Virus record (IMG/VR): IMGVR_UViG_3300045988_182204
Length of the DNA: 52,672 bases
Direction: 5' to 3' (one strand)
Source: a virus
The translations under genes were made by a program, and so were the position numbers. The notes beneath the pieces were generated by a model. It did not search any database, was not told the DNA's origin, and saw nothing but the letters and a program-made list of their open reading frames with translations. This document shows, in pieces, positions 6,374 through 42,699 of this stretch. Every line of letters begins with the position of its first letter. Position 1 is the stretch's first letter.

Positions 6374-7984
6374 ATGGCGTTGACCAATTTTATCAAGTTG
6401 TCATCTGAGCAAATTCAGACTCTTCAGCGTCAGACTAGCATTCCATACTTCATCTACAATGATGAAATCTCTGGTATCTATGGATCTACACTCCTTGCTG
6501 AGTTGGGCAGTCTCATCAAATACTATGAGATCTATGAAAAGGGAAGCTCTTTTGCGACTGAGGGCAGCAACGGTGACTATACTCCAAGCCAGCTTCGGTA
6601 CAAGAAGATTCATAGCCTGATTGACAAAGAGGCACGATTCCTGTTTGCAAAAACTCCGGACTTCTGGATTGATACTGAGATAGACACTGAGCTGTCTCAG
6701 ACCCAGAAACAGCAGATCAAGCAGGAGCAGACAATTCTACAGAACCTGGTTGATGCAGTCATCAAGGAGAACAAGGTGTCTTCAAAGCTCATTAAAGCTG
6801 CAAAAGACTGCTTCATCGGCAAACGTGTTGCTCTGTTCATCAATTTCAATGAGAATGGCATCAAGATTACATTCAACCCATCTTTGGAGTTTGTTTTTGA
6901 AACAGACCCAGAAGATATTGATGTGATCACTAAACTTGTGTCCTTCTACACTACTGTGGATTCCGCTGACAAAGCCCAGCAGCGTATCTACAAGAAAAAG
7001 TATTACATTGGCGAGGACAAAATGTGTCACATCATAGAGGAGCTCTATGATGGCATGGGCAATGTCGTAGAAACAATCACTCCTGACACAACTACACGGT
7101 TCTCTTACATTCCCGCTTTTGTCATCATCAATGATGGCTTGAGCGGTGATATTCAGGGTGTATCCGAGGTTGATCAGCTGGATGAGTATGAGCAAGCATA
7201 TTCTCGTTTGGCAAATGCTGATCAGGATGCTGAGCGAAAGGGTATGAACCCTGTGCGCTATGCTATTGACATGAACCCAAAGACAACTCAGGGTCTGTCT
7301 ACAGCAGCTGGTGCATTCTGGGATCTAGCATCTGACGATCAGGGTGCTTCAGAGAGGGTTGGTACAGTCGGCGTTTTGTCTGCGCCTATGGAGTACACAA
7401 ATGCTCTGACAACAACCCTTAACCGAATCGAAAACACCATGTACAGTCAGATGGATATGCCCAATACAAGCCCAGAGGCACTTCAGGGTGTTGTATCCAG
7501 TGGCAAAACCCTGAAAGCCATTTATTGGGGTCTGATCGTTCGTTGTGATGAGAAGATGCTAGCTTGGAGACCTGCCTTGGAATCCATGGTGAGAACTATC
7601 ATCGAGGGTGCCAAGCTCTATCCTGAGTTCTGTTCTCGCTACACAAACGGAGAAGCACTTCCTGATATTGAGTACTCTATTCGTGTTGACAATCAGTATC
7701 CACTTCCTGAGGACGAAGCCGAGGAGAAGCAGGTTGATCTGGCTGAGGTGAATGCTCAGACAATGAGCAAGAAAGCCTATATGGTCAAGTGGCGTGGGCT
7801 GACTGATGATGAAGCTCTGGATGAGCTGAAGCAGATCGCCCTCGAACGTCAGCTCCTGGAGGATAGTTTCATGCCCACAGAGCAGATCCAGCCACAGGGT
7901 AAAGAAACTGGTCAGGAGAAAACAGAGTCCTCCACAGATGAGCCAAGCTCTGCTGAGGATGACAATACTCCAGAGGGTGTATAA
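6374..7984 (+). CDS. Portal protein (SPP1 gp6-like)
   Basis: About 536 aa, located between terL and the MuF-like gene, with an acidic C-terminal tail. ATG 6374 has the best spacing from GAAGGTG; the track ORF starts at 6365. Confidence 0.8.
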   Translation: MALTNFIKLSSEQIQTLQRQTSIPYFIYNDEISGIYGSTLLAELGSLIKYYEIYEKGSSFATEGSNGDYTPSQLRYKKIHSLIDKEARFLFAKTPDFWIDTEIDTELSQTQKQQIKQEQTILQNLVDAVIKENKVSSKLIKAAKDCFIGKRVALFINFNENGIKITFNPSLEFVFETDPEDIDVITKLVSFYTTVDSADKAQQRIYKKKYYIGEDKMCHIIEELYDGMGNVVETITPDTTTRFSYIPAFVIINDGLSGDIQGVSEVDQLDEYEQAYSRLANADQDAERKGMNPVRYAIDMNPKTTQGLSTAAGAFWDLASDDQGASERVGTVGVLSAPMEYTNALTTTLNRIENTMYSQMDMPNTSPEALQGVVSSGKTLKAIYWGLIVRCDEKMLAWRPALESMVRTIIEGAKLYPEFCSRYTNGEALPDIEYSIRVDNQYPLPEDEAEEKQVDLAEVNAQTMSKKAYMVKWRGLTDDEALDELKQIALERQLLEDSFMPTEQIQPQGKETGQEKTESSTDEPSSAEDDNTPEGV

Positions 7985-24942: not shown

Positions 24943-24975
24943 AAGGACGGGATCAATTCCCGTCCTTATTTTTTG
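24943..24975. terminator. Bidirectional terminator at the convergence point of the two arms
   Basis: AAGGACGGGA-TCAA-TTCCCGTCCTT is flanked by an A-run upstream and a T-run downstream. It overlaps the last codons of the SNF2 gene. Confidence 0.75.
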
Positions 24976-26389
24976 TTATGTACTCAATCACATCTTGCTT
25001 TGATTTTAATGCAGCCAAAATCTGCCGATCTTTGCTGGGCTTCTTTGGCATATCTGCAATGATGTGATAATATACAACAGGTCTTGTTTGTCCTGGGCGA
25101 TGAATACGCTTCTTGCTCTGTAGATACATAGCCAGACTTATGTTAAGGCTGTAGTATACACAGTATCTTGCACGAGTTAGATCAATACTCTCACTGCCAG
25201 ATCTGTACTGCACGGCAATGATCTCAGCATTTCCAGACTTCCATTTTGCCATTGTGTCCATGACACCAGAGACTTCAGTATATCTTCTATTGAGCTTTTT
25301 GCAGACAGCTTGGATCTCATCAAAGTCATGTCGAAAAGTGGCAAAGACAACGACAGGCTCGTCCTGTTTGAACCCTGAGAGAATATCCTCAAGAACCTCC
25401 GCTCTATCATGATCAATGACCTCGACAGCCTTGAATCCCTCTGGATCTTCTACAGGGATGAACCCTGAGCAGACTTGCTGAAGCCGAAGAGTCTTGCTGA
25501 TGACTGCCTTGATCTCTGTTGCGCCAGATTTGCCCAAGTACAGCCCATCGTCTTCGAGGTCATGATAGACTTTCTGTGCCGCACGAGACATGGTGAAGCT
25601 GCGAATTATATTCAACCTCTTTGGCAATTCTATAGAGGATTCAATTGTGAACGCACAAGAAAACATCTTTTCTTTCAGGTCATCCAGATTCTTGTAGGGT
25701 TGCTTCTTGTTAAGGCAAGTGTAACCAACTTTTGCAGTTCTAACGATGTCTACATTTTGATATTTCTCTTTGAAGTCTGAGAAGCTCGTCCCAAAGATTT
25801 CTGGGTCCAAGAATCTGTACTGAGCATATATGTCCATGGGATTCTCTGCCAAAGGAGTTCCTGTTACAAGAAACCTGTGAGGAACGATCTTAGACAATCT
25901 TCGCAAGCACATAGAGCATCTGCTCGATGGAGTTTTGATTCGGTGACTTTCATCACAAATCACAAACTCAAGACCAACACTTTTCCGGAACAGGGTCTTC
26001 TCAAATTCTGGTCGCCAGATACTTTCATAGTTCACAATGATTATCATGGGCTCATTCTGGATCACCCTGGATCCTCGTGGAGCGAGCGTATTCAACAGCT
26101 GAACCTTTCCCCGGGTAGACAGGAAACGCACGTTGTGGATGAAATTTGGGCATATGTCTGTGTGTATTTTGAACTGCTGTTCCCAGACTTCACAGGCTTT
26201 TGGTGGTGCCACAATAATTCCACGCTTCCACCCTTTGTTTACAATAAGATCCATCATCACTTTCGTTTTGCCTGTCCCTGGGTCTGTGTAAAGGGCACCA
26301 CAATCTCGACCCATGAGATAAGACAGAGCCTTGAGCTGATGTGCCCAAGGCTTGGTCTTAAAGATGAATCCTTTGTATTTCCTCAGCAT
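24953..26389 (-). CDS. SNF2-family DNA helicase
   Basis: Motif I DPGTGKT, motif II DESH, motif III TGTP, with a C-terminal helicase lobe; paired with an upstream VRR-NUC gene. Confidence 0.85.
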   Translation of the reverse strand: MLRKYKGFIFKTKPWAHQLKALSYLMGRDCGALYTDPGTGKTKVMMDLIVNKGWKRGIIVAPPKACEVWEQQFKIHTDICPNFIHNVRFLSTRGKVQLLNTLAPRGSRVIQNEPMIIIVNYESIWRPEFEKTLFRKSVGLEFVICDESHRIKTPSSRCSMCLRRLSKIVPHRFLVTGTPLAENPMDIYAQYRFLDPEIFGTSFSDFKEKYQNVDIVRTAKVGYTCLNKKQPYKNLDDLKEKMFSCAFTIESSIELPKRLNIIRSFTMSRAAQKVYHDLEDDGLYLGKSGATEIKAVISKTLRLQQVCSGFIPVEDPEGFKAVEVIDHDRAEVLEDILSGFKQDEPVVVFATFRHDFDEIQAVCKKLNRRYTEVSGVMDTMAKWKSGNAEIIAVQYRSGSESIDLTRARYCVYYSLNISLAMYLQSKKRIHRPGQTRPVVYYHIIADMPKKPSKDRQILAALKSKQDVIEYITKNKDGN

Positions 26390-26676
26390 TCCTGGAACCG
26401 ATTACGAAGTCGGCTCTCAATAGCATTCATCTTGGTGAGGATTGCTTCTCGTTGTTCAGGTGGCAGTGCCTTTCCCTCTTTACTGTTAAGGCGCTGACGC
26501 AACTTGCGAGATTCAATGTTGCTGTAGAATATTGGGTATTCTCGACGACAATATGGGCATTTCAACATGTGCTCGATTACACCGTCGCCCAGCTTTTTCT
26601 CCTGTGGCTTGGAGCAGACAAAAGATTTTCCACAACCTTTGTCACAGATCACCTTGACAGATTCTTGTCGTTTCAT
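26383..26676 (-). CDS. Zinc-ribbon protein (97 aa)
   Basis: CDKGCGKSFVC ... CPYC cysteine pairs. Confidence 0.55.
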   Translation of the reverse strand: MKRQESVKVICDKGCGKSFVCSKPQEKKLGDGVIEHMLKCPYCRREYPIFYSNIESRKLRQRLNSKEGKALPPEQREAILTKMNAIESRLRNRFQEC

Positions 26677-27074
26677 TCATATTCCTCCAGCATGGATTCA
26701 ATAGTTGTATTGTTTTTCGATGACGCGACAAAAGCAATCATCTTGTCACTGTATTCATGAAGAAAGTGAGGAAGAATTGAACCATCCCTCCGAAAGACAA
26801 TCTTAATGTCATCTATGGTATATGCAACCATTACAAGGGCACCAGCTTTTTGCCAGCGCAAAAGATCATACAGTTGCTTCTTGCTGGGTACATTCCCATG
26901 ATCAGGAACTTTCAGCTCAATGCGGAAAGACCTGCCATTGATACACCCATTGATGTCTGCTCTGCCAGACTGAGCACTATTCCCCGACACATTCTCAGCA
27001 ACACATCCATTGATGCTGTTAAGGTACACAAGAGCCTGTGACTGAAAAGATGATTCCTTTGGCATGTAGATCAA
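26673..27074 (-). CDS. VRR-NUC domain nuclease
   Basis: GRADINGCINGRSFRIELKVP...SKKQ (D...ExK...Q) matches the VRR-NUC pattern. Confidence 0.7.
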   Translation of the reverse strand: MIYMPKESSFQSQALVYLNSINGCVAENVSGNSAQSGRADINGCINGRSFRIELKVPDHGNVPSKKQLYDLLRWQKAGALVMVAYTIDDIKIVFRRDGSILPHFLHEYSDKMIAFVASSKNNTTIESMLEEYE

Positions 27075-27499
27075 ACTCCTTTCTTCAAGAACTCTCCATA
27101 GGATTTGTGAATGGCAATATTCAGATCCTTGTGATTGACATCAAGTCTATGACACCAATAGAGAAAGTCTTGTTCTACTGGAATTGCCTTGTCATCAATG
27201 TAAAGGTCAGCGAAAACTTTCCTTGTGTCATTGTTGTAGAGTGCAATCACCTCAGGAATATTTGTATTGATTGCATCAAATACAATTCCTTTCTGGTGAC
27301 AATAGGAGACAGCATCAATGAGATTTTTACCATCTCTGGATGTCCAAAGAATCACTCGTATGTCCTGTGCCTGAAGAGCTTTTACAAGACTGAACATTCC
27401 CATATTGGGCTCCCCAATCTCGGGGAATTTGTCTTCTACCAAAGTACCATCAAAGTCGATAGCAACAATCTTCGGCAGATCATTGTTTGTTTTGTTCAT
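27071..27499 (-). CDS. HAD-superfamily phosphatase (nucleotidase-like)
   Basis: Motif I VAIDFDGTL, then ILWTSR and YIDDKA; 142 aa. Confidence 0.65.
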   Translation of the reverse strand: MNKTNNDLPKIVAIDFDGTLVEDKFPEIGEPNMGMFSLVKALQAQDIRVILWTSRDGKNLIDAVSYCHQKGIVFDAINTNIPEVIALYNNDTRKVFADLYIDDKAIPVEQDFLYWCHRLDVNHKDLNIAIHKSYGEFLKKGV

Positions 27500-27872
27500 A
27501 TTTGATAGTCTCCTCTTTCATGTGGAGTGAAGTCCAATTTTTTATGACCCCATCCATAGGAAGTGCTGCATGTCCAAGAGTTGGACTGAATAACTCAAAG
27601 TATCTATCTTGATATGCGATGTATATGGCTTTCTTTACATATTCTACATCGCTCTTCCGAGCCATTTTGAATGTAAGATCGAAATCTTCTTTGCACCATT
27701 TTCGGATCCAAACACTGATGTCAAACCCATCAGTGTTGGTTGCTTTTGAGAATGCATCCCAGACTTCTACTGGAACATAGCAAAAATGAATCCAAATGAT
27801 CCCTTGATCACTTATGACTTTGGACAGGACTTTCCTGTACACCGCTTTCGAGTTTGGGCTTCTGTGTCTCAT
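27480..27872 (-). CDS. Hypothetical protein (130 aa)
   Basis: ATG 27872 follows GGAGGG; overlaps the 3' end of the upstream gene; no motif recognised. Confidence 0.5.
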   Translation of the reverse strand: MRHRSPNSKAVYRKVLSKVISDQGIIWIHFCYVPVEVWDAFSKATNTDGFDISVWIRKWCKEDFDLTFKMARKSDVEYVKKAIYIAYQDRYFELFSPTLGHAALPMDGVIKNWTSLHMKEETIKYEQNKQ

Positions 27873-28674
27873 TTCCACCCTCCAGAGTCTTCTCGCCGTC
27901 TGGCAAGTTGCGCTCGTAGATATGTAGCGAACCTGCCTGATGAGTGTATGTACCAACTCCAACACCCAAGGTCATTGCCATCATCACCTGCATGGAGCAG
28001 AAGCTAAACATGTCATAGGGTACACCAGTCCAGACATCATTGGAGCGCATTGTTGTTGTCAGGTTAAGGCGACCGTCACGGAGCAAGAACTGGAGTGACA
28101 AGGTACACGGAGTATCTTTGGTTGCATCACTCATGGGTCGAGGATTTTTGATATGAATGACTGCTTGGCGACTATTTGGGTCAGCCTTGAGACGATTGAT
28201 CACATCCTGCCACTGATCAAACCCATAGAACTGCTTAATCTTGTGACCATAGCAGCTGTTGACCGTCTCTCCATCGTCACTCATGCGATCCCAAGCAGAG
28301 CTGAAGAGGCTAATGTCTTTGAGTCTGTTAGACCCAGAAAGATACCACAACAACTCTCCGACAGCATATCGCATGGGCATCTTGCGAGCTTCACTCTTGA
28401 CAATCATGCGAGTTGGGTCTTTGACAACGGTGATGGCGTTGATAACCTCAGCAGCCACAGCTCCGTCTCGAGAAGCAGAAGTTCTCTTGTTCATACGATG
28501 CTGAGCCAACAGAACAGCAAACCAATACTCCCATGCGCTGTTGACATCACTCACAACTACATAATTGTCAATGTCAGCATCGCCACACATACGACTGCTC
28601 TTGTTGTAAAGGGATGCGAGTTTGTACTCTTTTACAACATTATTGAAGTCTTCCACATTAAACAGCAAGCTCAT
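27808..28674 (-). CDS. ThyA-superfamily enzyme, deoxycytidylate 5-hydroxymethyltransferase-like (T4 gp42-like)
   Basis: AVGELLWYLSGSN, NSCYGHKI, DQWQDVINRLKADPNSRQAVI, catalytic Cys in TPCTLSLQF, MRSNDVWTGVPYDMF and GSLHIYERN. The Asn of ThyA PFNI aligns with Asp, as at T4 gp42 D179 (alignment by eye). Confidence 0.7.
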   Translation of the reverse strand: MSLLFNVEDFNNVVKEYKLASLYNKSSRMCGDADIDNYVVVSDVNSAWEYWFAVLLAQHRMNKRTSASRDGAVAAEVINAITVVKDPTRMIVKSEARKMPMRYAVGELLWYLSGSNRLKDISLFSSAWDRMSDDGETVNSCYGHKIKQFYGFDQWQDVINRLKADPNSRQAVIHIKNPRPMSDATKDTPCTLSLQFLLRDGRLNLTTTMRSNDVWTGVPYDMFSFCSMQVMMAMTLGVGVGTYTHQAGSLHIYERNLPDGEKTLEGGNETQKPKLESGVQESPVQSHK

Positions 28675-28675
28675 T

Positions 28676-29101
28676 TCAGGTCCTCCAAATTTCAATCTGC
28701 AAAGTTGAGTTTCCCATGACTTCGTCAAATCTCTTCATCAGTTCTTTGACAGGATACATGGGAGTTTCGTTGCGCTTGTTAAGGCGCTCTTCGATAGTCT
28801 TTTCTTGAGCGGTGACATAGATCACCTTTGCACCACGAGCAAGCATAGCAATCTCCAGATGATAGAGATCTTCTTTGCTCAGTTTCCGATCCTCTGGGGC
28901 TTGATAAACGAACTGACCATAGCAGAACCGATCGGCAATCACATTCTCACTTGTGGCTGCATCGAGAATATGATGGAAATAGCGATAGTCATTTGGAGTG
29001 TCCTTTGTACAATGGATAATACGTGCGTTGAGAATTCTTGCGAGCTTTCTGGCGATGGTACTTTTGCCAACGCCATCAACTCCTTCCAATACAATGAGCA
29101 T
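28676..29101 (-). CDS. Small thymidylate-kinase-like dNMP kinase (141 aa)
   Basis: P-loop LIVLEGVDGVGKST and a DR motif (ADRFCYGQFVY); shorter than cellular Tmk. Confidence 0.7.
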   Translation of the reverse strand: MLIVLEGVDGVGKSTIARKLARILNARIIHCTKDTPNDYRYFHHILDAATSENVIADRFCYGQFVYQAPEDRKLSKEDLYHLEIAMLARGAKVIYVTAQEKTIEERLNKRNETPMYPVKELMKRFDEVMGNSTLQIEIWRT

Positions 29102-29250
29102 TATTTGCTCCTTTCTGCTGCCTTGCAGACAGCTGCAATGATTTGATCTTGTCTCTTCTTGGGCAATCTATAGAACATGTTTGTATTCAGCAGCATGTAT
29201 CCTGAACCCCAAGAGAAACACATTTGGTCTTTGCCTTTGATTGGCTCCAT
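29101..29250 (-). CDS. Hypothetical small protein (49 aa)
   Basis: MEPIKGKDQMCFSWGSGYMLLNTNMFYRLPKKRQDQIIAAVCKAAERSK; its stop overlaps the kinase ATG (TAATG). It is below the ORF-track cutoff. Confidence 0.4.
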   Translation of the reverse strand: MEPIKGKDQMCFSWGSGYMLLNTNMFYRLPKKRQDQIIAAVCKAAERSK

Positions 29251-29257
29251 TTATATC

Positions 29258-30247
29258 TTACTCCTCCCAAGGACGTTTGTAAAGAGTTTTGCACAAATGT
29301 TTATTGTTTTTCGAAATGCTTCGAGCATAGTTCAGGATCTTGTCATTGGGCTCTGGTACTTCCTCTTCTGCAGGAATATGACCACCTCTAGGCAACAACC
29401 CAACGCGATGACTCATAGCATTGCATCCATAGCAGGGCTTGAAACTTCGCTCACCTGCATACAGAAGAATCCGAGCAGCTTCAAACCGTTTGCTGTACCA
29501 AATGTCCTCAATATTTTGCTCCATGATATTGCCAATTGGGTATTCACCACGGAAGTCATTACAGCAGATCGCCACAGAACCATCGTAGCGGATCGCCAGC
29601 TCTCTGAAAGGACGAGCGCACCGTTTACCTTGATAAGACATATCAAGGGGTCCAGCTGCTCCACAGTGGTTGCACAGATGACGATTGATAGCTTTCTCTT
29701 TCTGAATCGGGGGGTTGAACAACACTCGGAACCCATTTGGATTTGTACTGTACAAAGGAACCTTTCGTGCCAGATGCTCAATCTTCAGATCAGGTACATC
29801 TTGAATAGCATCTTCAATCGTTCGAGCATCGCCTTTGTCGGAATAGTAGTCAATGATCAAATCGTTAAGGCCAGCATCTCTCAGAGCATATACTCGCTCA
29901 ATGATGGTTTTCTGGTCTGCAACCATGCCAAACCCATTGACAATGCCGTAACCATTGCTCATCATGGACATAACGGTGTTGGGAAAAGTCTTTCTGAACA
30001 GCTTGATTATTCTAACTGCATTTGGGTTAAGGGTTGGTTCCCCATGCATAGAAAAAATGATTCTACTGTGCCAGTGCACACGCTTGATCTCAGCAATAAT
30101 TCGCTCTGCAGTTTCCTTCTTCATACGATACCAAGGTTGAGTGCCTTTCTCTCGCATACCACGAAGACCACAGAATTTGCATCCCAGATTGCAACCCTCA
30201 TTCAGCTCAATCTGAATAGAATACGGTGGACTCTGTTTTCTTGACAT
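29258..30247 (-). CDS. Radical SAM enzyme with SPASM/twitch-type C-terminal Cys cluster
   Basis: CX3CX2C (CNLGCKFC); C-terminal CNHC, C-x12-G-x4-C-C (CARPFRELAIRYDGSVAICC) and CYGC. ATG 30247 follows GGGAGGAG. Confidence 0.8.
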   Translation of the reverse strand: MSRKQSPPYSIQIELNEGCNLGCKFCGLRGMREKGTQPWYRMKKETAERIIAEIKRVHWHSRIIFSMHGEPTLNPNAVRIIKLFRKTFPNTVMSMMSNGYGIVNGFGMVADQKTIIERVYALRDAGLNDLIIDYYSDKGDARTIEDAIQDVPDLKIEHLARKVPLYSTNPNGFRVLFNPPIQKEKAINRHLCNHCGAAGPLDMSYQGKRCARPFRELAIRYDGSVAICCNDFRGEYPIGNIMEQNIEDIWYSKRFEAARILLYAGERSFKPCYGCNAMSHRVGLLPRGGHIPAEEEVPEPNDKILNYARSISKNNKHLCKTLYKRPWEE

Positions 30248-30248
30248 G

Positions 30249-30440
30249 TTACTCCTCCCATTCGCAGTTAAATATTGTTTTGTTGATTTTGCATTCAATA
30301 TTGACTTCAAACACATTAAGCGGGAGTTCGATCTTACCCACAAATGCATATTTGCAAATTTCTTTCAGTTCGCAGGCTGTACATGGCATGAGTTCGTGAT
30401 GCCGTTCCACAAGATCTGTCCTATGTTTATTTGATGCCAT
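30249..30440 (-). CDS. Small Cys-containing protein (63 aa)
   Basis: MASNKHRTDLVERHHELMPCTACELKEICKY...IECK...NCEWEE; lies immediately upstream of the radical SAM gene. Confidence 0.5.
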   Translation of the reverse strand: MASNKHRTDLVERHHELMPCTACELKEICKYAFVGKIELPLNVFEVNIECKINKTIFNCEWEE

Positions 30441-30441
30441 A

Positions 30442-30612
30442 TCATTCATCCTCATAAACTTTTATGTCCAAACGAATAGTGTATTTTTTCGGGTTGTTGC
30501 TGGGGACTTTGTAGATCAGCATTCCGTGACCGAGATCAATTCTATTGCAAGAGCCATCTTTTATCATAGCTATGGCTCTATTAAGAACTTGTATGTCATG
30601 TTTGTCAAACAT
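30442..30612 (-). CDS. Hypothetical small protein (56 aa)
   Basis: ATG 30612 follows GGGAGGAA; internal start of track ORF 30442..30651. Confidence 0.45.
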   Translation of the reverse strand: MFDKHDIQVLNRAIAMIKDGSCNRIDLGHGMLIYKVPSNNPKKYTIRLDIKVYEDE

Positions 30613-30613
30613 A

Positions 30614-31561
30614 CTATTCCTCCCAGAAACATTTAATTCGTTTGCTGCCATGGATTTTATGATAAGCTGTCCAATTTATGTCTCCCCACATATAGTCGCC
30701 ATCAGCATCCCTGAAGCTGGTTCGCAGATAATCCTTGATTGGGTATTTCTGCAACATATTGTACTCATATTGATGAAGTTCTTTTTCTGTCTCCGGAGTA
30801 CGAATAACACTGTCACATTTCTCACTCACATAGTCATAGGTCAGGCAAGGAATGTTGAAGCAGTGACCACCATTGGCAAGAATAACAGCGCAGAACCCAA
30901 TGTCATCACCGTGACGATCAAAGATCATATCACGATCAATTTTTGCTTTATAAAGACCCTTTACATTTATCAATGTAACCTGGCGAGGGGTTGGACCAGA
31001 GTCAATGATGTATTTCAGCTTGGAATTTTCAACATGCTGGGACATACGTTGACGACGAATGTTACCCAAATAGACCTTTGGATATGTCTTGAAAACTTCT
31101 TTGCCAATGACACCAGCCATTGTAAGAACCTTTTGCTCCAGCAGAGGATCTGCTTCTCTGTCAGCATTGATTGCATGCTTTGAGCAAGGATTCCCTGTTC
31201 CAGAACACCCATCATACATGTATGCAAGGTTTCGAATGTCATCGTCCATGTCGATGATCATTGAATATTTGTGCTCAGCGGCATACTCATAGATGAACTG
31301 ACGAGTACTGGCCAACCCATTGATTGGCAGGTGAAAGTCTTTTGCGATAGGTAGAATATGAAGATTTGGATTTGCCTTTCGATAAGCTTTTGCTTGCTCC
31401 GGACGAACAACAATATGAATCTTTTCAAGTGCTTCTGGCTCAAAGTTTTTGAACATTTCAGCAGTTACAAAATGAGGTCTGTTGTACGACGGAACAAAAA
31501 TGTGAGGAAGTTGATTCACAGACAAACTGTTAAGGTGTCTGTACATTTCTTGTTTTTTCAT
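30614..31561 (-). CDS. GT-A-fold glycosyltransferase-like protein (possible DNA-base glycosyltransferase)
   Basis: N-terminal IFVPSYNRP (GT2-like) and the DXD-type acidic motif MIIDMDDDI; 315 aa. Confidence 0.55.
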   Translation of the reverse strand: MKKQEMYRHLNSLSVNQLPHIFVPSYNRPHFVTAEMFKNFEPEALEKIHIVVRPEQAKAYRKANPNLHILPIAKDFHLPINGLASTRQFIYEYAAEHKYSMIIDMDDDIRNLAYMYDGCSGTGNPCSKHAINADREADPLLEQKVLTMAGVIGKEVFKTYPKVYLGNIRRQRMSQHVENSKLKYIIDSGPTPRQVTLINVKGLYKAKIDRDMIFDRHGDDIGFCAVILANGGHCFNIPCLTYDYVSEKCDSVIRTPETEKELHQYEYNMLQKYPIKDYLRTSFRDADGDYMWGDINWTAYHKIHGSKRIKCFWEE

Positions 31562-31576
31562 GACTGGTTCACCTCA

Positions 31577-31608
31577 TAAAAAGTGCCCTCCCATGGGCTG
31601 AGAGGGCA
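31577..31608 (-). terminator. Terminator/attenuator between the recombination module and the modification operon
   Basis: Minus-strand TGCCCTC-11 nt loop-GAGGGCA followed by CTTTTTA; lies 16 nt upstream of the GT-like gene ATG. Confidence 0.5.
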
Positions 31609-31627: not shown

Positions 31628-32320
31628 TTATTCCTCTTCCCAATCGTCATCGTCGTCCTCGTCATCTTCTTCGACGGGTTCCGGCTTCTTCTTTGCTTTC
31701 TTGGCAGGAGCTTTCTTTGCAGGGGATTTCTTGGGAGCAGGTTTTTCCTCTTCTTCAGAGTCATCGTCGTCCTCGTCCCAATCACTGTCCTCGTCTTCCT
31801 CAGGATCAGGCTTCTTCTTTGCTGCAGCTTTCTTTGCTACAGGCTTCTTCTTGGGCTTCGGAGCTTCCTCTTCGACTTCCTCCTCGTCCTCGGAAACATC
31901 TTCCTCGTCGAAGCTGTCCTCATCCTCATCGTCATCATCCGACTTGGCTGCACCAGGCTTCAGATAGTCACTCACTCGAGCACGGATCTGACCATTGTAC
32001 TCTTCATGGGTGACATTGATATTCAGAGACTTACCGATCATATTGTCCAGATCAACAGCAACCTTTCCGTCACACTTCATGCCGATGATCTGCAGCAGAG
32101 ACTTGAACTTCCACAGAGCCTTGTCGGTGAGAACCAGATTGTCAAATACCTTGACACCCTTGTCATCACCGGAAAGGATCTCAAAGGCAACCTGCAGCAT
32201 GGGGTCACCACCCTGAGTATTCTTCTCCTGGATGTCAGAGATCTTGACATGATGAACACCCTCGCTTGCGCGCTGGAATGCCTCAACATTGGTAAAATCG
32301 ATTTTAACTTTGCGTGCCAT
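31628..32320 (-). CDS. DUF669-like ssDNA-binding-type protein with a long Lys/Ala + polyacidic tail
   Basis: The N-terminal ~120 aa fit DUF669 and sit next to an AAA_24 ATPase. The C-terminal ~110 aa alternate KKPVAKKAAAKKKP-type and DEDDE-type blocks. Confidence 0.6.
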   Translation of the reverse strand: MARKVKIDFTNVEAFQRASEGVHHVKISDIQEKNTQGGDPMLQVAFEILSGDDKGVKVFDNLVLTDKALWKFKSLLQIIGMKCDGKVAVDLDNMIGKSLNINVTHEEYNGQIRARVSDYLKPGAAKSDDDDEDEDSFDEEDVSEDEEEVEEEAPKPKKKPVAKKAAAKKKPDPEEDEDSDWDEDDDDSEEEEKPAPKKSPAKKAPAKKAKKKPEPVEEDDEDDDDDWEEE

Positions 32321-32359
32321 AATAGATACCTCCAAAATAGTGTTATATTTCCAAAGGCA

Positions 32360-34137: not shown

Positions 34138-34214
34138 TGGTCGAGATGACAGGACTCGAACCTGCGACATCTTGGTCCCAAACCAAGCATTCTACCAATC
34201 TGAATTACATCTCG
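34138..34214 (-). tRNA. tRNA-Pro (anticodon TGG), CCA encoded
   Basis: Hand-folded cloverleaf: acceptor CGAGATG/CATCTCG, anticodon arm CTTGG-TTTGGGA-CCAAG, T arm GCAGG-TTCGAGT-CCTGT, 3' ACCA. Confidence 0.8.
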
Positions 34215-34509: not shown

Positions 34510-34586
34510 TGGTGCTAGAGACAGGGTTCGAACCTGCAACCTCTTGATTACAAATCAACTGCTCTACCCATTAGAGCTACTCTAGC
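34510..34586 (-). tRNA. tRNA-Thr (anticodon TGT), CCA encoded
   Basis: Hand-folded: acceptor GCTAGAG/CTCTAGC, D arm GCTC-TAATGGGTA-GAGC, anticodon loop TTTGTAA, T arm GCAGG-TTCGAAC-CCTGT. There is one mismatch at the top of the anticodon stem. Confidence 0.75.
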
Positions 34587-38131: not shown

Positions 38132-38689
38132 TCAAACACCCATGCATTGAGAGGCATACATATCAGCAGTATGCGTGTAGAGCACATTAGGATAAGCACA
38201 ACAAGCAGCAGAATATCCTTTCCAATACTTTTCACCCTCAAAGGCACCCATGTGCCAGCGAATGCACATCAGTTCTTCAAAAGTGAGCTCAAGGAACTGC
38301 TGAATCAAAGCTACACTGGCACTGCCATGCCCAGGGAGAATCACATTTTCGGTATGTGTAAAGGTCCCGTCTTCTTGCTTGGTATACAATTTTGTCTTAC
38401 AATAGTCATGCAGCATACCAACAATATATGGGGATTCTTTTCGCTCCCAGTGAAGCCTCAGGCTCTGTGTGTAATCTACAAGTTGACGTGTTACAGCAAA
38501 TGAATGATCAAAAAGACCACCCTCATAATTGCCATGATGAGAAGCTGCTGCTGGAGCAGTGAAGAACCCATCTTTTTCAAGCTGCTGAAGAACCCCTGTA
38601 TTGTATGGACGAGGCATATAACCTGTGAATAGAGCAATGCGTTCTTCTTTGGTTCTGTCAAACACCATATTCTTTTTTGCTGAAGTCAT
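38132..38689 (-). CDS. HD-domain phosphohydrolase
   Basis: HHGNYEGGLFDHSFAV and MLHDYCK (H...HD...D pattern). Confidence 0.7.
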   Translation of the reverse strand: MTSAKKNMVFDRTKEERIALFTGYMPRPYNTGVLQQLEKDGFFTAPAAASHHGNYEGGLFDHSFAVTRQLVDYTQSLRLHWERKESPYIVGMLHDYCKTKLYTKQEDGTFTHTENVILPGHGSASVALIQQFLELTFEELMCIRWHMGAFEGEKYWKGYSAACCAYPNVLYTHTADMYASQCMGV

Positions 38690-41010: not shown

Positions 41011-41487
41011 TCAATTCGTTGCGTCTGGAGCATCCCAGTTGGCCACTTGAACACTTTTTACACCATTATATGCAAAGATTTGTTCAGTTTCTTCACTGAT
41101 ATATTGCTTGCGTCCATAATAGACCTCTGTGATTCCTGCAGCAACAATAGCACGCGCACAGGCTTCACAAGGATACCGTGTTACATAGATTCGTCCACCT
41201 CGTGCAGGTCTCTCCAAATGAGCGATGGCGTCGATCTCGCTATGAACAGCACGACAATCTGCAGGTCCACGATGGGTCTTATCGTTGTTGCCATACTTCT
41301 TGATACGCAAGCAGCCCTCGAACTGACAAAGATTTGGGATTGTTGCATTTGCTCCAAAAGAGAGAATTCTTCCATGCTTATCTGTGATACAAGATCCAAC
41401 AGACACTTTCAAGCAACCAGATCTTGCCTCTGCATAAGTCTGAGCCATGTCAAGATATCTTTTGACAGGCATCTGCTCATTTGCCAT
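41011..41487 (-). CDS. dCMP (deoxycytidylate) deaminase
   Basis: Zinc motifs VHSEIDAI and PCEACARAI; ATG 41487 follows AGAGGAA. Confidence 0.8.
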   Translation of the reverse strand: MANEQMPVKRYLDMAQTYAEARSGCLKVSVGSCITDKHGRILSFGANATIPNLCQFEGCLRIKKYGNNDKTHRGPADCRAVHSEIDAIAHLERPARGGRIYVTRYPCEACARAIVAAGITEVYYGRKQYISEETEQIFAYNGVKSVQVANWDAPDATN

Positions 41488-41674
41488 TATTGTTCCTCTT
41501 TTCTTGTTCCTTTTGTTCACGACGAGCTTTCTCACGACGAGCTGCTCGGCACTCACTGCAATGGGTAAAAGGCTTCAGCCCACGAGTTTCGAGCCAAGCC
41601 AGCTCGTTGTCAGAGATAGAAAAAGGACGATTGCAGGTCTTACAGATCCGCTGCTGACGATTGTTTTCTGCCAT
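41477..41674 (-). CDS. Zinc-ribbon protein (65 aa)
   Basis: CKTCNRPF...CSECR followed by a basic tail (RREKARREQKEQEKR). Confidence 0.55.
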   Translation of the reverse strand: MAENNRQQRICKTCNRPFSISDNELAWLETRGLKPFTHCSECRAARREKARREQKEQEKRNNNGK

Positions 41675-41688
41675 GATAAATACCTCCA

Positions 41689-42699
41689 TTATTTGTAAAT
41701 GTATTTGACACGAGGACGACCAGTGCCCTCGATTGTCCGAATGTATTTGCAGAATTCACACATACAGTTCTCCAAACACATAACACTGAAGAACCGATCT
41801 TCTTGAGGCAAATCTACAAAGAGTCTACCAGCCCAAAAAGGTGGATGAACTTCGTTGAAGATTTCATCTATGTTGTCCGCGAGCCAGAACAGAGCTTCTT
41901 CATGAGTGAGCCCATTGTAGTCGTCAAACAACTTGTTAAGGCCTTTTTTGCATCCTGGTCCAGCTACAACGAACTCATTCTCACTAAATGGAAACTCTTC
42001 TATATAGGTTAAATCAACAAAGATTTGATATGCCAAAAAATCTGCAAAGCCTTGGATCTCTTTTATGGCTTCAAATGCAACCTTTTGGTCACTGGCACTT
42101 AAGAGTTTTTCAACGGTGTTGTGCTCCTTGAGCCATGGACCGATATGGAATACTCGTAAAGGTATATCTTGCTCCACACAGTCACTGAAATGATCAATGT
42201 CTGCATATCTCCAGGCCTGTTTTGTGCCACCCTGATTGTATGCCGAAGACCACCACTTGCGGTCAGAATCTTCTGTAACTAACTGCTTGTAGATTGGTCG
42301 AACCTGTTCTTTCATCTGCGAGGAGTAAAGGCTCTTTGCTGGCCATGGTCCACCAAGATCCTTCATTGTATCCCAGTTGTTCCATGCTCGGAAGTAGAAG
42401 CTATTGACAATCTTATCCTCTATAGATAGACATGGATTGGTACTGATATTTTTGATGAGATATTGGCTCTGACGATCATGCTCACGACGAATGTTGCAGA
42501 ACTTGTACTGTAACAGGATCGGGTTGTTTGTCCATGGTGCTTTTTGCTTCAAGAAGTCTTTGCGAATATGAATCTTGTAGCGCTCTGTTACAAAGTCATA
42601 GAAGTGTTTGACTGCAACGGCATTCAATTTGGGTTTGGCTTCCAGAATCTTTTGCTGATTCACACCGCAGTATTTTACATCTGCTCTTTTATTTTTCAT
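41689..42699 (-). CDS. Putative DNA base hypermodification protein (aGPT-pyrophosphorylase-like family)
   Basis: PWTNNPILLQYKFCNIRREHDRQSQYL and VVAGPGCKKGLNKLF resemble the PWT.DpIL..yrFcNvyRe.DR.T and GPGa.RGL motifs I recall for this family. This needs HMM confirmation. Confidence 0.45.
   Translation of the reverse strand: MKNKRADVKYCGVNQQKILEAKPKLNAVAVKHFYDFVTERYKIHIRKDFLKQKAPWTNNPILLQYKFCNIRREHDRQSQYLIKNISTNPCLSIEDKIVNSFYFRAWNNWDTMKDLGGPWPAKSLYSSQMKEQVRPIYKQLVTEDSDRKWWSSAYNQGGTKQAWRYADIDHFSDCVEQDIPLRVFHIGPWLKEHNTVEKLLSASDQKVAFEAIKEIQGFADFLAYQIFVDLTYIEEFPFSENEFVVAGPGCKKGLNKLFDDYNGLTHEEALFWLADNIDEIFNEVHPPFWAGRLFVDLPQEDRFFSVMCLENCMCEFCKYIRTIEGTGRPRVKYIYK

Follow-up and report, generated by a model that had tools for sequence, protein, structure and literature searches.

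A candidate DNA cytosine hypermodification pathway in an uncultured siphovirus, combining a TAGT-family glycosyltransferase with a BtrN-like twitch radical SAM enzyme

The 52,672-nt stretch analyzed here (IMG/VR record IMGVR_UViG_3300045988_182204; hereafter "the window") carries on its minus strand, from position 31561 down to 27808, a compact string of genes for a glycosyltransferase (GT), a radical S-adenosylmethionine (SAM) enzyme, a small nucleotide kinase and a thymidylate synthase (ThyA)-like enzyme, which we propose as a candidate pathway for hypermodification of DNA cytosine. Judged by its gene content, the window is a near-complete genome of a tailed phage of the siphovirus type. The plus strand encodes the terminase large subunit, portal, head morphogenesis protein, major head protein, tape measure, minor tail protein and endolysin, and the minus strand, from ∼48.5 to 24.95 kb, encodes a primase/helicase, a family-A DNA polymerase (PolA), a Cas4-like exonuclease, a Sak4-like ATPase, a DUF669 single-stranded DNA-binding (SSB)-like protein and an SNF2 helicase. 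The phage is gut-type, with a Gram-positive anaerobe as its probable host. A nucleotide search of the GenBank phages found no close cultured relative, the sole match being a 250-bp stretch of the SSB-like gene in Burkholderia jumbo phages.

An earlier reading of the letters and open reading frames (ORFs) of the window (the sequence-only reading) had described eight coupled minus-strand genes between 31561 and 27808. The coupled string is real, but only seven genes lie inside these limits, and the eighth, a 130-amino-acid (aa) ORF, extends beyond 27808. The motifs quoted in that reading are all present in the predicted proteins (TPCTLSLQF, MRSNDVWTGVPYDMF, NSCYG, DPNSRQ, GSLHIYERN, LEGVDGVGKST and CNLGCKFC, as well as C-x12-G-x4-CC, PCYGC, VPSYNRP and IIDMDDDI). 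At most junctions of the string, a GGAGG-type Shine-Dalgarno sequence lies within or directly 3' of the upstream stop codon. The translational coupling is unusually regular, with the last codons of one gene (TGGGAGGAxTAA) forming the Shine-Dalgarno sequence of the next. Because these terminal codons serve both purposes, several proteins end in ...WEE or ...WEEE; ends of this type are found at the 3' ends of the genes for the GT (30614), orf68 (30249), the radical SAM enzyme (29258) and the SSB-like protein (31628). A terminator-like hairpin (31584..31608, minus strand), whose 10-bp stem includes 6 GC pairs and precedes a T-run, separates the SSB-like gene from the GT gene and marks the upstream edge of the unit; a second one is located 3' of the SNF2 helicase gene at 24943-24967. 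No hairpin of comparable strength was found between genes in the span from 31608 to 24943, and the operon therefore probably extends from the GT gene to the SNF2 helicase gene at 24953.

The ThyA-like gene (27808..28674, minus strand) encodes a 288-aa member of the ThyA superfamily that we predict to be a pyrimidine hydroxymethylase of the cytosine type, acting on deoxycytidine monophosphate (dCMP). The protein matched the Pfam family Thymidylat_synt (PF00303) with an E-value of 1.9e-34 (119.5 bits, cut-off 24.3). A PDB sequence search returned 127 ThyA-family matches, in which the best solved relative was the CMP 5-hydroxymethylase MilA (E = 2.6e-36), with thymidylate synthases following at 3e-23 or worse. 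We aligned the protein with T4 gp42, SPO1 gp29, a ViI-like phage hydroxymethylase, E. coli ThyA, and the proteins of Agathobaculum phage AB434P2 and Enterococcus phage VPE25. The catalytic cysteine, C190 in TPCTLS (the column of E. coli ThyA Cys146), is invariant in this alignment and across all related loci. The column of ThyA Asn177 is occupied by Asp in the window protein, T4 gp42 (Asp179), MilA, and the proteins of AB434P2, VPE25 and Microbacterium phage Hamlet, and by Asn in SPO1 gp29 (a dUMP hydroxymethylase), the ViI-like hydroxymethylase and E. coli ThyA; the same residue cleanly divides all the related loci. This Asn/Asp residue sets the preference for cytosine or uracil, and swapping it switches the specificity. 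Proper alignment thus bears out the proposal of the sequence-only reading that Asp replaces the ThyA Asn as it does in T4 gp42, whose motif that reading had quoted correctly; with Asp in this column, the protein does not align as an ordinary dUMP-specific thymidylate synthase. The closest cultured relative is the AB434P2 protein, with 54% identity. From the affinity to MilA and gp42, together with the partner glycosyltransferase, we infer that the product would be the 5-hydroxymethyl nucleotide.

The neighboring gene (28676..29101, minus strand) encodes a mini P-loop nucleotide kinase of 141 aa, Tmk/YorR-like, for which we predict a role as 5-hydroxymethyl-dCMP kinase. The protein has the P-loop GVDGVGKST, and the Pfam family Thymidylate_kin (PF02223) aligned in two short stretches (E = 6.8e-11, 42.6 bits against a cut-off of 27); at 141 aa, it falls well short of the 185 positions of the Tmk profile. 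Its best PDB match was YorR of the SPbeta prophage (2axp, an uncharacterized protein; E = 8e-12). The gene remains adjacent to the ThyA-like gene in a sister phage (locus L003), where the kinase is 49% identical, and Enterococcus phage VPE25 has a weak match to it upstream of its own ThyA-like gene. A role as a 5-hydroxymethyldeoxyuridine (5-hmdU) DNA kinase (5-HMUDK), that is, a DNA-base kinase, was rejected, since no match to the family PF18748 was found at E≤0.01; BLAST similarity to the 5-HMUDK homologs of two related loci (L015 and L016) is at the level of the P-loop only. We also rejected a split kinase formed by the mini kinase and the helical gp160-like protein described below, as distant gp160-like genes occur without a nearby kinase.

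At the upstream end of the operon (30614..31561, minus strand) lies the gene for a 315-aa GT-A glycosyltransferase of the TET-associated glycosyltransferase (TAGT) family, predicted to glycosylate the 5-hydroxymethyl group of DNA cytosine. Pfam TAGT (PF20691) matched with E = 1.9e-10 and 41.4 bits against a cut-off of 27.5, with only residues 20-116 of 315 in the alignment, and the same annotation is precomputed for most of 98 homologs of the protein. The PHROGs matches were phrog_4519 (glycosyltransferase) and phrog_842 (beta-glucosyl-HMC-alpha-glucosyltransferase). An AlphaFold2 model of the enzyme was obtained with a predicted local distance difference test (pLDDT) score of 94, and Foldseek matched it to the GT-A folds of ppGalNAc-T, SpsA, the LH3 GT domain and TarS. 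The profile gave no match against PDB sequences, so that the structural placement came from the fold search alone. Residues D106, D107 and D108, which fit the acidic DxD motif that GT-A enzymes use for metal and nucleotide-sugar, are invariant among 30 homologs. A confident GT-A model and a TAGT match above the cut-off agree with the earlier description of a GT-A-like protein, and the family matched is not one with an unrelated substrate: TAGT enzymes are described as DNA-base glycosyltransferases in the cited literature, tied to enzymes that form 5-hydroxymethylpyrimidines, and a 2026 paper assigned the T6-type second glucosyltransferase to TAGT and regarded it as the likely source of di-glucosylated cytosines. 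A ThyA-like gene lies ≤2 kb from the TAGT gene in the window and in L003, L005, L015 and L016. The activity expected of TAGT enzymes is the transfer of a sugar onto 5-hydroxymethylcytosine (5hmC) or 5-hydroxymethyluracil (5hmU) in DNA, and we predict 5hmC as the acceptor for the window enzyme.

The radical SAM enzyme (29258..30247, minus strand; 329 aa counted from the ATG preceded by a Shine-Dalgarno sequence) is the predicted tailoring partner of the GT. Pfam identified both a Radical_SAM domain (E = 1.7e-11, 45 bits) and a SPASM domain (E = 1.4e-13). The CX3CX2C motif (C19-x3-C23-x2-C26) is invariant in 36 homologs, as are C195, C210, C228, C229, C272 and C275. A second auxiliary cluster motif, CX2CX5CX3C, was not found, and no Cys follows PCYGC. 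Because CX2CX5CX3C is absent among the invariant cysteines, we classify the protein as a twitch enzyme with a single auxiliary cluster; the sequence-only reading was right about the radical SAM fold and the auxiliary cluster region, and its label of radical SAM/SPASM enzyme has to be narrowed from a full SPASM to a twitch domain. The best PDB sequence match was BtrN (E = 1.2e-11), with C210, C228/229, C272 and C275 aligned to four BtrN cysteines, which we take to be the ligands of the BtrN auxiliary cluster. Foldseek likewise placed BtrN (4m7t) at the top (E = 1e-11; template modeling (TM) score 0.69-0.73 over the BtrN length), the next match being at 1e-5; other matches were AbmM, DesII, SpeY and BlsE, which act on sugars or cyclitols, as well as anSME and EpeE. 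Both searches support what had been a guess of a BtrN-type twitch enzyme. We nevertheless rejected BtrN orthology, given 17-20% identity, the context of phage DNA modification and the near absence of the family from cellular genomes. A viperin (pVip) assignment was rejected as well: the PADLOC (E ∼2e-5) and NCBIfam (3.9e-5) matches span residues ∼11-106 only, and viperin scored ∼3e-4 in Foldseek versus 1e-11 for BtrN.

An exhaustive profile search (E≤1e-30) resolved the radical SAM family into 275 clusters at 50% identity. Its members are almost confined to phages, and a search of 185,579 species genomes turned up homologs on just 3 contigs, all from metagenome-assembled genomes. Cultured phages yielded nothing above 23% identity; tblastn against 50,697 GenBank phage records (E≤1e-5) produced 3 matching records, at 23% identity, and no homolog of the M6 gp53 type.

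Two of the radical SAM homologs, P0347 (623 aa) and P0473 (672 aa), are interrupted by inteins, one of which includes an HNH endonuclease; the PolA of the sister phage L003 (2958-5033) also carries an intein. P0339 (534 aa) is extended at its C terminus by ∼215 aa, in which a PHSDD motif resembles that of LmbE/PIG-L sugar deacetylases, and the N-terminal ∼390 aa of P0343 (709 aa) begin like a GT-B (GT4) enzyme. These motif-based resemblances are tentative, and neither extension gave a Pfam or PDB sequence match.

The association between the radical SAM enzyme and the GT extends well beyond the window. Since many IMG/VR loci are near-duplicates, we grouped the 87 loci analyzed, 80 of them from a scan of IMG/VR, at 70% identity into 29 lineages and counted per lineage. 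A TAGT homolog, called in part with an iterated hidden Markov model built in this analysis, is encoded ≤1 kb from the radical SAM gene in 19 of the 29 lineages; when the TAGT neighbors were checked with Pfam, seven loci scored above the cut-off, two were marginal and two gave no match. The two enzymes are also found in one polypeptide. A single 579-aa ORF of L088 (protein P0219) consists of TAGT (1-197), Radical_SAM (277-384) and SPASM (467-533) and is recorded on 3 contigs from three sources, and a second fusion, P0356 (588 aa), is 37% identical to it. On shared contigs, the GT and the radical SAM enzyme co-diverge, to about 63% and 58% identity, respectively. In L015 and L016, where the radical SAM enzyme is about 60% identical to that of the window, the stop and start codons of the TAGT and radical SAM genes overlap, and the cluster also holds a 5-HMUDK, an AADT-like protein, Nmad1/DUF1599 and an Asp-type ThyA homolog. 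Conserved adjacency and two fusion lineages thus back the link between the GT and the radical SAM enzyme that had been proposed from the window alone. The sister phage L003 is syntenic from primase to SNF2 helicase and keeps the order GT (50% identical), kinase and ThyA without a radical SAM gene, and we therefore regard the radical SAM enzyme as an optional add-on. A ThyA-type hydroxymethylase is encoded near the radical SAM gene in 18/29 lineages and a gp160-like protein in 17/29. The hydroxymethylase is of the Asp type only in the clade of the window (3 lineages) and of the Asn type in 15; the radical SAM-GT pair therefore appears to serve 5-hydroxymethylpyrimidine DNA in general and not cytosine only, with the window as the cytosine version.

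Several further features were observed at these loci. In the regions L015 5245-8368 and L016 7453-9067, the 5-hmdU DNA kinase homolog (PF18748, 36% identical to the ViI-like kinase) occurs together with the AADT-like protein (PF18724); kinase/AADT chemistry on 5hmC would, as far as we know, be new. L015 also encodes an Fe-ADH+HAD fusion upstream of the TAGT-radical SAM pair. At a uracil-type locus, L090, the second gene upstream of the radical SAM gene (6428-7459) encodes a cytidylyltransferase-like plus mannose-6-phosphate isomerase/cupin protein, which suggests that this phage supplies its own nucleotide-sugar. In phages of ∼55-100 kb, a family of ∼220-aa ORFs directly follows the radical SAM gene (L007, 10957-11619; L009, 10948-11619) and has no family match; judged by BLAST family clustering, it appears to make up the N-terminal part of a 501-aa TAGT protein in L067 (10933-12438). 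The 311-aa and 346-aa neighbors of the radical SAM gene in ∼100-kb phages and L085-type loci were considered as divergent TAGTs and rejected (hhalign probability <1%, no PHROG or Pfam match).

Outside this operon, the window encodes a 336-aa homolog of Salmonella phage ViI gp160 (41689..42699, minus strand; aG/PT-PPlase1, HMUDK_hel) that has no P-loop. It matched Pfam PF18723 with E = 4.4e-58 (197 bits versus a cut-off of 25) and is 36% identical to Vi01_130c/orf00160 over residues 1-335, the full length. An invariant Cys314 and a GPG motif suggest that the protein is an enzyme. In L005, the gp160-like gene is directly beside those for a uracil-type ThyA homolog and TAGT. Comparison of the gp160-like profile with PDB and with the AADT-like protein of L015 gave nothing significant. 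Lee et al. 2018 named ViI gp160 aG/PT-PPlase1 and predicted a DNA-glycosylase fold, and the protein table of the follow-up (Lee 2022) gives no function for it. From its gene associations, the protein is probably an additional component of the modification system.

These assignments lead us to a two-stage model with predicted substrates, step order and radical chemistry. In the first, pre-replicative stage, the ThyA-like enzyme would turn dCMP into 5-hydroxymethyl-dCMP, the mini kinase would convert this to the diphosphate and host nucleoside diphosphate kinase to the triphosphate, and the phage family-A polymerase would incorporate the 5-hydroxymethyl-dC nucleotide, while nucleotide pools would be tuned by the dCMP deaminase and perhaps also by the HD hydrolase (both described below). 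In the second, post-replicative stage, the TAGT GT-A enzyme would use a nucleotide-sugar as donor to glycosylate the 5-CH2OH group in DNA, and the radical SAM enzyme would tailor that sugar. By analogy with BtrN, a hydrogen atom would be abstracted at a carbinol carbon of the sugar and an electron passed to the auxiliary cluster, leaving a keto, dehydrated or epimerized sugar. The gp160-like protein probably also takes part. The first stage together with glycosylation is, in our judgment, a likely reading of these genes, and we regard it as equally likely that the radical SAM enzyme belongs to the DNA-modification pathway. For the two-stage cytosine pathway as a whole, radical SAM enzyme included and step order and chemistry aside, we lean toward acceptance. 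Action of the radical SAM enzyme after the GT, on the DNA-linked sugar, is a tentative proposal that falls somewhat short of even odds, and BtrN-like dehydrogenation as the specific chemistry is doubtful.

Several observations weigh against this model. The identity to BtrN is only 17-20%, and the radical SAM model is only moderately confident, its pLDDT being 77 overall and low near part of the auxiliary-cluster region. About ten radical SAM lineages have no recognizable TAGT nearby, among them phages of ∼55-100 kb in which the radical SAM gene lies between the portal and capsid genes. Some of the TAGT-less loci show a weak GT4-like match or the 220-aa partner found joined to TAGT in L067. The ThyA superfamily also includes dCMP methylases and 5-hydroxy-dCMP synthases, and the mini kinase resembles viperin-associated kinases as well (PADLOC VakA, 7e-12). 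We recognized no clear gp56-like dCTPase in the window, nor an aminotransferase or any other enzyme that would obviously process a keto sugar further.

The radical SAM enzyme could alternatively act upstream of the GT, remodeling a host nucleotide-sugar by dehydration, deamination or oxidation, in the manner of DesII, BlsE or AprD4, into an unusual donor that the TAGT would then transfer to 5hmC. DesII, BlsE and AbmM, whose substrates are nucleotide- or nucleoside-linked sugars, are among its structural neighbors, a fusion to TAGT suits substrate channeling in either direction, and the cytidylyltransferase-like plus isomerase/cupin gene of L090 lies near a radical SAM gene. The best structural neighbor, BtrN, however, acts on a free aminocyclitol, the radical SAM enzyme has no evident nucleotide-binding extension, and the sister phage L003 retains an orthologous GT (50% identity) without a radical SAM enzyme, which argues that this GT can use an ordinary donor; we consider donor remodeling rather unlikely. 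An anaerobic counterpart of TET can also be envisaged, in which the radical SAM enzyme oxidizes the 5-hydroxymethyl group itself (-CH2OH to -CHO, as in anSME) to give 5-formylcytosine or 5-formyluracil, in DNA or in nucleotides, and the GT acts in parallel on the remaining 5-hydroxymethyl sites. One of the top fold neighbors is anSME, which makes formylglycine from Ser/Cys, but its score is about six orders of magnitude worse than that of BtrN. The ThyA-type hydroxymethylase and the gp160-like protein are the commonest neighbors of the radical SAM gene beyond TAGT, and about ten lineages have no TAGT detected ≤1 kb away, as this proposal would allow; the TAGT fusions, on the other hand, favor cooperation with the GT over competition for one hydroxyl, and we judge the proposal improbable.

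Doubt could also be directed at either end of the pathway. If the ThyA-like enzyme were a dCMP methylase, a 5-hydroxy-dCMP synthase or an ordinary thymidylate synthase, the acceptor of the GT would be 5-hydroxycytosine or not DNA at all. The 5-hydroxy-dCMP synthase of Mosigvirus is homologous to the hydroxymethylase, both belonging to the thymidylate synthase superfamily (2026, PMC13390438), and hydration and hydride transfer are inseparable by sequence alone. Against this, the closest characterized relative, MilA, is a hydroxymethylase, the Asp contradicts an ordinary dUMP specificity, and the literature links the family of the partner GT to enzymes that form 5-hydroxymethylpyrimidines, so that we give this explanation very little weight. 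Least of all do we credit a presence of the radical SAM enzyme in the operon by chance, as a viperin-like nucleotide enzyme or a peptide maturase unrelated to DNA modification. The weak PADLOC pVip (E = 2e-5) and NCBIfam viperin (3.9e-5) matches, the VakA match of the kinase, a matched pVip model described as 'viperins associated with kinases', and the Cys-rich orf68 in a superfamily with many peptide-maturing SPASM/twitch enzymes all fit such a role. Yet the pVip matches are limited to the generic N-terminal radical SAM core of an enzyme that also has a twitch domain, Foldseek favored BtrN over viperin by the scores given above, and the kinase stays with ThyA in L003 in the absence of any radical SAM gene. 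The small ORFs offer no constant peptide partner either, orf69 and orf68 being missing beside a 98% identical radical SAM enzyme and orf49 in more distant relatives, and the conserved pairing and fusion with TAGT would be left unexplained.

Comparison with known systems indicates which parts of the two-stage model have precedent. As in the T-even 5hmC pathway (T4 gp42 dCMP hydroxymethylase, gp1 dNMP kinase, gp56 dCTPase and the alpha- and beta-glucosyltransferases), the window encodes an Asp-type ThyA homolog next to a nucleotide kinase, as well as a dCMP deaminase, with sugar transfer expected after replication, and its GT shares the TAGT family with the T6-type second glucosyltransferase. 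The window hydroxymethylase, however, has only 27% identity to gp42 and is closer to MilA, a YorR-like kinase of 141 aa stands in place of gp1, no gp56 homolog was found in the window, and the primary GT is a GT-A/TAGT enzyme in place of a GT-B alpha- or beta-GT; the window further adds the radical SAM enzyme and the gp160-like protein, in a siphovirus of a probable Gram-positive anaerobe. Genes for GT-A enzymes beside ThyA-family genes have been reported as common in metaviromes, and metavirome GT-As encoded beside 5mYOX/TET or ThyS have been shown to add hexose, HexNAc or heptose glycans to 5hmC (Burke 2021, PMC8256090; Pyle 2023 preprint, 10.1101/2023.12.21.572611). The window shares with these clusters a GT-A gene beside that of a ThyA-family or TET enzyme, and differs in its radical SAM gene, which is unmentioned in the main text of either paper. 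The only neighboring immune genes listed in the latter survey are 'viperins (pVip)'. Because the window radical SAM enzyme gives weak pVip matches through its N-terminal core only, these 'viperins' beside GT/ThyS clusters may be members of the tailoring radical SAM family misread as immune genes.

Thymidine hypermodification (ViI, M6, PaMx11, SP10 and PhiW-14; Lee 2018, 2022) likewise begins with a pre-replicative hydroxymethylpyrimidine that is then tailored on the DNA polymer. A homolog of ViI gp160 (36% identity) is encoded in the window, L015 and L016 carry 5-HMUDK and AADT homologs, and M6 gp53, a spore-photoproduct-lyase-like protein of the glycinylthymine isomerase type (Lee et al.), is a precedent for a radical SAM enzyme that acts on a DNA-linked substituent. 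In contrast to these systems, the window is predicted to append a sugar, and not an amino acid or polyamine, to a base of the cytosine type, and it has no 5-HMUDK or AADT. With BtrN (2-deoxy-scyllo-inosamine dehydrogenase of butirosin biosynthesis; PDB 4M7T) and SpeY/DesII/BlsE, the radical SAM enzyme shares the CX3CX2C motif and a twitch domain with a single four-Cys auxiliary cluster; unlike BtrN, it is about 80 residues longer, has two extra invariant cysteines (C195 and one of C228/C229), is phage-encoded and, within its family, occurs beside or fused to a DNA glycosyltransferase. A cytosine-specific ThyA-family hydroxymethylase, a glycosyltransferase that attaches a sugar to the base and a radical SAM enzyme that tailors this sugar are also combined in the biosynthesis of the small-molecule antibiotics mildiomycin and blasticidin S, where the CMP hydroxymethylase MilA, cytosylglucuronate synthase and the radical SAM enzyme BlsE/MilG act on the free base or nucleotide through an N-glycosidic linkage. 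MilA and BlsE are both among the matches of the window proteins, but the window enzymes presumably act on DNA, where the sugar would be O-linked via 5-CH2OH.

Among cultured phages, Microbacterium phage Hamlet (Ilzatvirus) resembles the window in an Asp-type ThyA-like protein (gp50), a TAGT-like GT (gp48, 26% identity) and an annotated thymidylate kinase (gp47), and also encodes MazG proteins; Enterococcus phage VPE25 has an Asp-type ThyA-like protein and a small protein weakly similar to the mini kinase, as well as a dUTPase-family protein and a beta-GT. No radical SAM homolog was detected in Hamlet or VPE25 by tblastn, and a literature search found nothing on the modification chemistry of Hamlet-type phages or VPE25. 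A full-text search likewise returned no paper that links a radical SAM enzyme with DNA glycosylation. The core of hydroxymethylase, kinase and GT-A is therefore an already known kind of system, given the ThyA-family and GT-A clusters reported in metaviromes, and the claim that the combination had not been described holds only for the radical SAM partner, which alone looks new.

DNA hypermodifications of phages defeat restriction and CRISPR nucleases and are a source of enzymes for epigenomics. To our knowledge, the known sugar modifications of 5hmC are plain glycosylations, and the only radical SAM enzyme shown in DNA hypermodification is the unrelated M6 gp53, on an amino-acid adduct. A twitch radical SAM enzyme that acts by oxidation, dehydration, epimerization or C-C bond formation on a glycosylated 5-hydroxymethylpyrimidine in polymeric DNA would be the first such sugar-tailoring step, an outcome we put forward as possible while rating it a little less probable than its opposite. 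If correct, it would represent a new reaction class, the oxygen-independent radical tailoring of a DNA-borne sugar, and a new family of modified bases on cytosine and uracil scaffolds in many uncultured phages, including gut phages of roughly 100 kb. Sister phages with and without the radical SAM enzyme imply a defined difference in nucleoside mass, and the fusion proteins offer convenient expression constructs.

The small ORFs of the string vary among relatives. The product of orf69 (30442..30651, minus strand) is 69 aa, or 56 aa if translation starts at M14 (30612), which is likelier, as the Shine-Dalgarno sequence precedes M14; the ORF is a variable insert outside the core and is present only in L026 and L068. 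The Cys-rich orf68 (68 aa; 30249..30455, minus strand) is another variable insert, found in L068 only among 80 related loci. In L017-L019, where the radical SAM enzyme is 98% identical, the TAGT gene directly abuts the radical SAM gene with neither orf69 nor orf68 between them. A third small ORF, orf49 (49 aa; 29101..29250, minus strand), is kept only in the closest relatives; it was detected in L017-L021 and L068 and not detected in L023-L027. Searches of Pfam, PHROGs, NCBIfam and PADLOC gave no family match for orf69 or orf68, and searches of Pfam and PHROGs gave none for orf49. The absence of orf69 and orf68 beside a 98% identical radical SAM enzyme, together with the lack of family matches, led us to reject the small ORFs as peptide substrates or essential partners of that enzyme, a substrate role being unlikely for orf68 in particular. 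By comparison, the 130-aa ORF (27480..27872, minus strand), which overlaps the stop codon of the ThyA-like gene and has no family match, is conserved, with homologs of 26-30% identity at the same position in L003, L015 and L016.

Additional nucleotide enzymes are encoded on the same strand. A 181-aa dCMP deaminase (41011..41556, minus strand; Pfam dCMP_cyt_deam_1, E = 4.8e-14; phrog_174, E = 2e-31) would serve nucleotide-pool balancing. A 185-aa HD-domain phosphohydrolase (38132..38689, minus strand) matched Pfam HD just under the cut-off (E = 2.5e-4) and phrog_28876, metal-dependent phosphohydrolase (E = 4.5e-20); it is conserved upstream of PolA in L018-L021 and L068 and is a speculative candidate for depletion of the dCTP pool. 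Downstream of the 130-aa ORF, a 142-aa HAD phosphatase of the BT0820 type (27071..27499, minus strand; NCBIfam NF046079, E = 6.6e-30, below the curated cut-off; PDB 2obb, E = 4e-19) is syntenic in L003, L015 and L016 and possibly acts as a nucleotide or sugar-phosphate phosphatase. The same coupled string continues downstream of the HAD phosphatase with a 133-aa protein (26673-27074) that has weak PHROG matches to endonucleases and Holliday-junction resolvases, and with a 97-aa Cys-rich, zinc-ribbon-like protein (26383-26676). On the other side of the operon, the DUF669 SSB-like protein (31628-32335) bears a low-complexity tail of ∼100 residues in which acidic stretches alternate with stretches rich in lysine, alanine and proline. 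Two tRNA genes, tRNA-Pro(UGG) at 34138-34214 and tRNA-Thr(UGU) at 34510-34586, are located on the minus strand between the exonuclease and polymerase genes.

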